A DNA stretch of 64,000 bases from Octopus vulgaris (Eukaryota). Within the stretch, counting starts at the first letter, position 1; every line of letters begins with the position of its first letter. The notes under the pieces were generated by a model. It was not told the DNA's origin. It worked only from the letters and a program-made list of their open reading frames with translations, and ran no database searches. Positions 19,966 to 20,060 of the stretch are shown in pieces. Made by a program: the position numbers and the translations under genes. The stretch is from positions 23,808,001 through 23,872,000 of the forward strand of contig OX597826.1 in assembly GCA_951406725.2 (NCBI GenBank), in the 5' to 3' direction.

Positions 19966-20060
19966 AGTGAAACCAAGTAGCAACACCAAATGGCGGTGCC
20001 CCAGCATGGCCACAGCTCATAAGCTGAAACTGGAAAAATCAAAATCAAAATCAAAATCAA

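Follow-up and report, generated by a model that had tools for sequence, protein, structure and literature searches.

Shared stem-loop tails between SINEs and LINEs are a well known and long-established principle, bivalves included. By 2013, 58 SINE/LINE pairs with common tails had been tabulated, mostly CR1 and RTE (Ohshima 2013, PMC3747384), and the word octopus is absent from the available portion of that paper. Among molluscs, the tRNA-type SINEs BivaV-SINE2 and BivaCORE-SINE1 of bivalves were described with the CR1 3' tail of CR1-14_CGi (Nishihara 2016, PMC4824008), and the bivalve tRNA-type SINE Vhc_1 with the CR1 tail of CR1-1/-14_CGi (Matetovici 2016, PMC4758252). These bivalve pairs have conserved stem-loops with compensatory changes, and their partnership was inferred from sequence, as in the octopus (PMC4824008, PMC4758252).

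Eel UnaL2 with UnaSINE1/2 and zebrafish ZfL2-1/-2 resemble the octopus elements in having a stem-loop with an internal mismatch, short terminal repeats and no poly(A) (PMC1636434, PMC4176376). They belong to the L2 clade and carry one long hairpin with family-specific loop recognition, as tested by experiment (PMC1636434, PMC4176376). In these elements, recognition depends on the shape of the stem and the sequence of the loop, and the internal mismatch is a hinge; reverse transcription is primed from the terminal repeats, and in ZfL2 a loop swap abolishes mobilization between sister LINEs (PMC4176376, PMC1636434).

Octopus repeats are described as SINE-rich, with tRNA-Core and tRNA-Deu as the main classes (PMC8967140). 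The octopus OR1/OR2 CORE-SINEs (Ohshima and Okada 1994) are similar, by description only, to the SINE studied here, which is likewise abundant, apparently tRNA-type and, judged by eye, CORE-like in the part behind its B box. In the literature searched, which had the original octopus SINE paper, Repbase and Dfam outside its scope, we found no account of a LINE partner for an octopus SINE.

The shared tail and its predicted fold

In the window, the whole 64,000-nt stretch of Octopus vulgaris DNA analyzed here, we found a 39-nt tail (19992-20030) which is the common 3' end of LINE and SINE copies, far above chance. The 20-nt motif of its first hairpin matched the window 16 times with at most three mismatches, against 0 matches in 100 shuffles. 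With at most five mismatches, the 21 matches were composed of four young LINE ends (2575, 19992 and 22473 on the forward strand and 8147 on the reverse strand), one old LINE end (48288, reverse strand) and 16 SINE-type tails. Throughout the genome (2.80 Gb), 15,503 exact matches of the LINE-type motif and 111,171 of the SINE-type motif were detected, and the reversed controls gave 0. Sixty evenly spaced 10-kb stretches contained 80 tail hits: 78 SINE-type, one of LINE family A and one chance match.

Through re-reading the copies at 2575, 8147, 19992 and 22473 together with SINE copies, we confirmed the LINE and SINE tail sequences quoted in the original prediction; the second SINE tail, given there as about 33490-33525, is located at 33547-33585 and has two mismatches. 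Hairpin 2 reads CAGCT-CATA-AGCTG in the LINE copies at 2575 (+), 8147 (-) and 19992 (+), CGGCC-TTCG-GGCTA in the divergent copy at 22473 (+), and CAGTC-ANAT-GACTG in the SINE copies. The majority tail of the young SINE shows 5-10 differences from the majority tail of each LINE family.

The tail is predicted to form two hairpins. Hairpin 1 (19992..20011, +) comprises 3 bp, a G.G mismatch, 4 bp and a 4-nt loop, and is near-invariant in six LINE families and the SINE; hairpin 2 (20013..20026, +) comprises 5 bp and a loop that is different in every family. This double hairpin was the minimum-energy fold in 10 of 10 family majority tails. Compared with shuffles, the fold energy of the 40-nt A and SINE tails had z of -2.7 to -4.3, and that of the B copy had z of only -0.2, with B refolding in its 86-nt context.

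Identity in hairpin 1 was 18-20 of 20 positions in all 15 pairs of the six LINE families, and 3-12 of 20 in the adjoining upstream 20 nt. Contigs from two public runs, taken at 80% likeness, had 22 variant rows upstream of 19977 and 0 in the tail. Judged from these comparisons, the conservation of hairpin 1 shows constraint. Its near-invariance had been noted originally and was borne out, but no compensatory change was present and a single C-G to U-G wobble was the one change in pairing; being invariant and without covariation, hairpin 1 has a fold that is argued from energy only.

For hairpin 2, the prediction that pairing is kept through sequence change held in part. Both-sided changes were found at two of the five pairs, namely 26:31 in A and 25:32 in the SINE and 18 of 26 H copies, the latter pair being U-A in these and still C-G in basal H members. 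In the young B copy, however, the outer pair is broken (C.A) and the next is a G-U wobble, yet this youngest B family spread recently (1.2%). Among nine hand-picked rows, the both-sided pair count was equalled by 86 of 500 shuffles, and the covariation score was reached by 1 of 500, a figure which by the warning of the tool is not a probability. A post hoc estimate for the stem-2 events gave p of about 0.005 under independent change in the SINE and H, and about 0.03 otherwise. The LINE-type C-G pair occurs in SINE copies at roughly the low rate that chance double mutation would produce, and these copies were set aside. Hairpin 2 has two compensated pairs, which probably arose in three events; the support is modest.

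One family-C copy, L289, contains a tandem duplication of the tail (G000:C1:139852957-139853066). Many LINE-type insertions are approximately the tail alone, an extreme 5' truncation, often beside (TA)n (L003, L013, L014, L016, L018, L020, L021 and others).

The LINE families and the SINE

Through pattern and similarity searches, at least six APE+RT LINE families were found to bear the tail (A, B, C, E, G and H); as sampling was by best match, this count is a lower bound and further families may exist. Family A includes the copy that ends in the tail at 19992, B the copy ending at 22473, and E the old end at 48288.

The whole family-A copy occupies 15845-20062 (+). It starts with an array of imperfect AT-rich repeats (15845-16345, +), a region in part common to copy L152. 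ORF1 (16404..17312, +) gave weak Myb/SANT-like and CCCH zinc-finger matches, all below Pfam cut-offs. ORF2 (17138..19965, +), encoding the APE endonuclease and RT, has a deletion of about 280 nt near 18309 and a later frame change, and is 97-98% identical to the open-frame copy L152. The AAAC linker, the family-A terminal repeat (TGGAAAAATC, then AAAATC units) and (TA)n follow at 20027..20062 (+).

Two further family-A copies are 5'-truncated, at 1471..2631 (+, tail 2575-2613) and 8101..8895 (-, tail 8147-8109). An older copy of the A lineage, represented by its 5' part alone, is located at 9833..12270 (+); it is 86% identical to L152, and no tail was found in it. The 5'-truncated copy at 20874..22530 (+), with tail at 22473-22511, a UUCG loop and a ATTTTTAAGG repeat, had been taken for a divergent fifth copy of the same LINE; it shows only 76% nucleotide identity with A and belongs to the separate young family B (97% to L157). 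The old family-E copy is a decayed 3' end at 48235..48500 (-), with its tail from 48288 and an AAAAGAT repeat. The region 1471-22530 holds five LINE copies of two families within 23 kb, amid long (TA)n tracts, and comparable A/B/C clusters were found at C1:70-74 Mb and C2:55-60 Mb.

The Pfam domains of ORF2 were Exo_endo_phos and RVT_1 only, and the CCHC pattern was absent from the last 250 aa of the A, B and C ORF2. The LINE 3' ends carry short repeats and no poly(A). The RT motifs appear CR1-like, and the lineage is likely of the CR1 group (Jockey superfamily). CR1-Zenon, which lacks ORF1 and ends in poly(A) (PMC13343379), was ruled out by the ORF1 and the repeat tails, and the Tx1/L1 clade by the absence of a zf-RVT/CCHC C-terminal domain. 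Among the 120 best ORF2 hits, the single named homologue was from Argonauta hians (60%).

The CCCH-type zinc finger and the weak Myb/SANT-like N-terminus, again below Pfam cut-offs, were also observed in the ORF1 of L152 (2145-3080) and L153. The ORF1 types named in the available part of PMC4120745 are CCHC, RRM, PHD and esterase, and our literature search found no relevant paper on a CCCH finger in CR1 ORF1.

ORF2 protein identity among A, B and C was 62-70%. A tree of ORF2 3' ends, built without the tail from 58 rows (subsets drawn at random, seven long-branch or mis-sorted loci left out), separated A+B+H from C+E+G (100/99, midpoint root only). The median distance to the family majority was 0.8%, or about 1%, in young A (n=32), 3.6% in older A (10 of 14 rows), 1.2% in young B (n=4), 6.0% in older B (n=14), 1.0% in C (n=10), 7.7% in G (n=27), 13.9% in E (n=24) and 10.9% in H (n=28), the values of E, G and H being biased low because they were taken from best-match or exact-motif searches, whose samples are biased young.

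Family A is both numerous and young, and many of its ORF2 frames are open. The roughly 517 copies of family C are near-identical and sit on a long branch; of 112 C-best fragments, 0 were at 80-96% identity, and the absence of relatives of intermediate age from the sample suggests a low-copy past or a recent arrival. In young A, two types of terminal repeat (TAGAATC/AATC and TGGAAAAATC/AAAATC) are found on tails that are identical, so a family can change its terminal repeats quickly. Two H copies, L381 and L382, are 95% identical upstream and differ in hairpin 2 and terminal repeats, which suggests a 3'-module exchange between subfamilies.

The SINE appears to be tRNA-type and is about 390 nt long; its A/B-box-like head is followed by a CORE-like segment, a microsatellite middle and, at the end, the 39-nt tail. 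The full-length reference copy is located at 53918..54312 (-, tail 53967-53929), and other copies at 34505..34885 (+, tail 34827-34865, AAAAGAGT repeat) and 33222..33600 (+, tail 33547-33585). The box-like motifs were recognized by eye against the box consensus, and ARAGORN and Rfam gave no match in the window; directly after the B box there is a short likeness, also by eye, to Cgi_CORE_1. The SINE occupies at least 7% of the sampled DNA (at least 51,383 of 710,000 bases).

A terminal-repeat class was assigned for 104 of 165 SINE-bodied tails. Median divergence was 6.0% for AAAAGAGT (n=66), 10.7% for AAAAGAAT (n=25) and 20.1% for AAAAGAT (n=13), and divergence differed among the classes (Kruskal p=8e-11). 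The repeat class tracks internal markers (64/64 versus 1/13 without the old insert, p=4e-13), and this trend recurs in 110 kb of fresh DNA. The main burst falls at 3-7% and the youngest subfamilies at 3.3-3.4%; only 7 of 139 copies are at 2% or less.

Both kinds of element have a TA-rich insertion context, which is weaker for SINEs than for LINEs. Against a background of 8%, a (TA)n tract came after the 3' end of 33 of 56 copies in A, 14 of 15 in B, 21 of 26 in C and 16 of 25 in G, and of 32 of 116 young SINEs; the signal at E ends was weak (2 of 12). NATA precedes 26 of 31 SINE 5' ends (not deduplicated).

Candidate LINE partners of the SINE

The original prediction was that the LINE ending at 20062 mobilizes the dominant SINE, an idea that a better fit of another LINE family to the SINE tail was to refute. 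The shared tail and the TA-rich context support a partnership at the level of the lineage, but the tail sequence does not favor family A, and better matches were found in two respects, H by its stems and C, G and E by their terminal repeats. Compared with the young SINE, H shows 0 paired (exact stems), 5 unpaired and 7/13 terminal differences; C shows 2 paired, 4 unpaired and 0/13 terminal differences; G and E each show 2 paired, 4 unpaired and 3/13 terminal differences; and young B shows 5, 5 and 7/13, respectively. For A, the differences from the SINE are 4 paired, 5 unpaired and 6-9/13 terminal (7-8/13 for the young SINE). G is the nearest family to the middle SINE wave and E to the old wave, with 1/13 terminal difference each. 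The ends with a SINE-matching repeat numbered 9 of 10 in C, 18 of 27 in G and 14 of 24 in E, versus 0 of 33 in A and 1 of 15 in B.

Comparison of ages, which had been proposed as a check, favors older A and older B for the main SINE burst: both subfamilies (3.6% and 6.0%) are coeval with it, but the youngest A has few SINE contemporaries. The LINE lineage was active through the entire SINE history, and C is younger than the main burst. Since H, C, G and E match the SINE tail better and A and B match in age, the partnership is supported for the lineage and not for family A specifically.

A LINE with the exact loop and repeat of the SINE was found in 0 of 30 SINE-type tail loci, in none of the 80 tail hits in 600 kb, and in 0 of 30 loci chosen by the LINE-type upstream motif, although a low-copy one may exist. 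The idea of a young subfamily of E that carries the young repeat was rejected, with just 6 exact matches genome-wide, of which 2 were C copies. Tx1 was rejected as well: of 30 zf-RVT loci, followed to about 1.1 kb beyond the stop, 0 had the tail, and the Tx1 copy in L162 ends in another tail.

We consider, with a probability of roughly 60%, that the SINE was copied by the RTs of several sister LINE families over time via the shared double-hairpin tail, and not by A alone. The best reading of the tails is that the SINE would parasitize the LINE lineage through hairpin 1. If eel UnaL2 and zebrafish ZfL2 are a guide, the ORF2p would bind the conserved loop and the G.G mismatch of hairpin 1, hairpin 2 would be needed for its shape with its sequence immaterial, and reverse transcription would start within the terminal repeat, at a target of ATA/(TA)n. 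As the L2 loop is read as sequence and the mismatch is a hinge, the constant loop and G.G of hairpin 1 are a likely lineage-wide binding site. It is from the eel and zebrafish L2 that we infer the originally predicted role of the hairpins as the element recognized by the RT. Against a lineage-wide model counts the ZfL2 loop swap, which blocks mobilization, so that sister families need not share passengers.

We might speculate that the SINE has long been a parasite of the entire LINE radiation and that its tail is of two parts, a constant hairpin read by the ORF2p of every family and an exchangeable end (hairpin 2 and the terminal repeat) re-tuned at least twice, from E to G to C, to whichever sister family carried the SINE at the time. 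We put this forward tentatively and would expect it to be wrong sooner than right. If true, the SINE fossil series would be a record of host hand-offs at single-nucleotide resolution, and the family-specific determinant would be the terminal repeat rather than the loop.

An unlikely alternative to copying by several sister families is that the E, G and then C lineages drove the SINE in turn, the SINE taking on, or being selected for, each repeat, and that A, B and H do not mobilize it. The terminal 13 nt agree with this, the three waves differing from C, G and E at 0, 1 and 1 positions and from A, B and H at 5-9, as do the tie of repeat class to internal markers and the grouping of C, E and G on one side of the ORF2 tree. 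The age orders also agree (6.0, 10.7 and 20.1% in the SINE; 1.0, 7.7 and 13.9% in C, G and E), but a matching order would arise by chance in 1 case in 6. Only one letter separates the three repeat units, the repeat varies within E (four near-perfect E-type ends carry GAT twice, GAAT once and GAGT once), and 61 of the 165 SINE tails were unclassable. Further, C with its 517 or so copies offered none of the age of the main burst in the sample, and may have acquired its repeat from the SINE. In its strict form the scheme also faces old A and old B, which are coeval with the burst.

That the A lineage itself is the partner appears quite improbable. Its abundance, youth and open ORF2 frames would suit such a role, older A overlaps the SINE burst, and A and the old SINE differ at just 2 unpaired positions. 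Its 4 paired and 6-9/13 terminal differences are nevertheless among the worst of the six families, no A end carries the SINE-type repeat, and the youngest A (about 1%) meets few SINEs of its own age.

It is very unlikely that the tail is simply common by descent and that the apparent compensation in hairpin 2 reflects DNA-level correction of a near-palindrome or 3'-module exchange, instead of selection on RNA structure: the ends of the loops CATA/CATG and ANAT can pair with each other, so that hairpin 2 is almost perfectly palindromic there, and L381/L382 look like a module exchange, but the loops GGAT, TCT, TCAA and CTTG are non-palindromic, hairpin 1 is conserved across families whose neighboring sequence is unalignable, and neither process explains the retention of the tail by the SINE through three waves.

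Comparison with known systems

Copying by several sister families would give a likely engine for a SINE that makes up at least 7% of the sampled DNA, in a group whose genomes are known for SINE expansion. The six LINE families are natural variants that offer ready substitutions of stem, loop and repeat for the question of how stringent RTs choose their RNA, and they bear on whether a SINE could survive by passing from one sister LINE to another.

The tail printed for Cgi_Vhc_1 in the available part of its description (PMC4758252) has no visible likeness to the octopus tail. Different from the bivalve pairs, the octopus comparison spans six sister LINE families and three SINE waves. Unlike that of UnaL2 and ZfL2, the octopus tail is predicted to contain two short tandem hairpins, one of them constant and the other free-looped.
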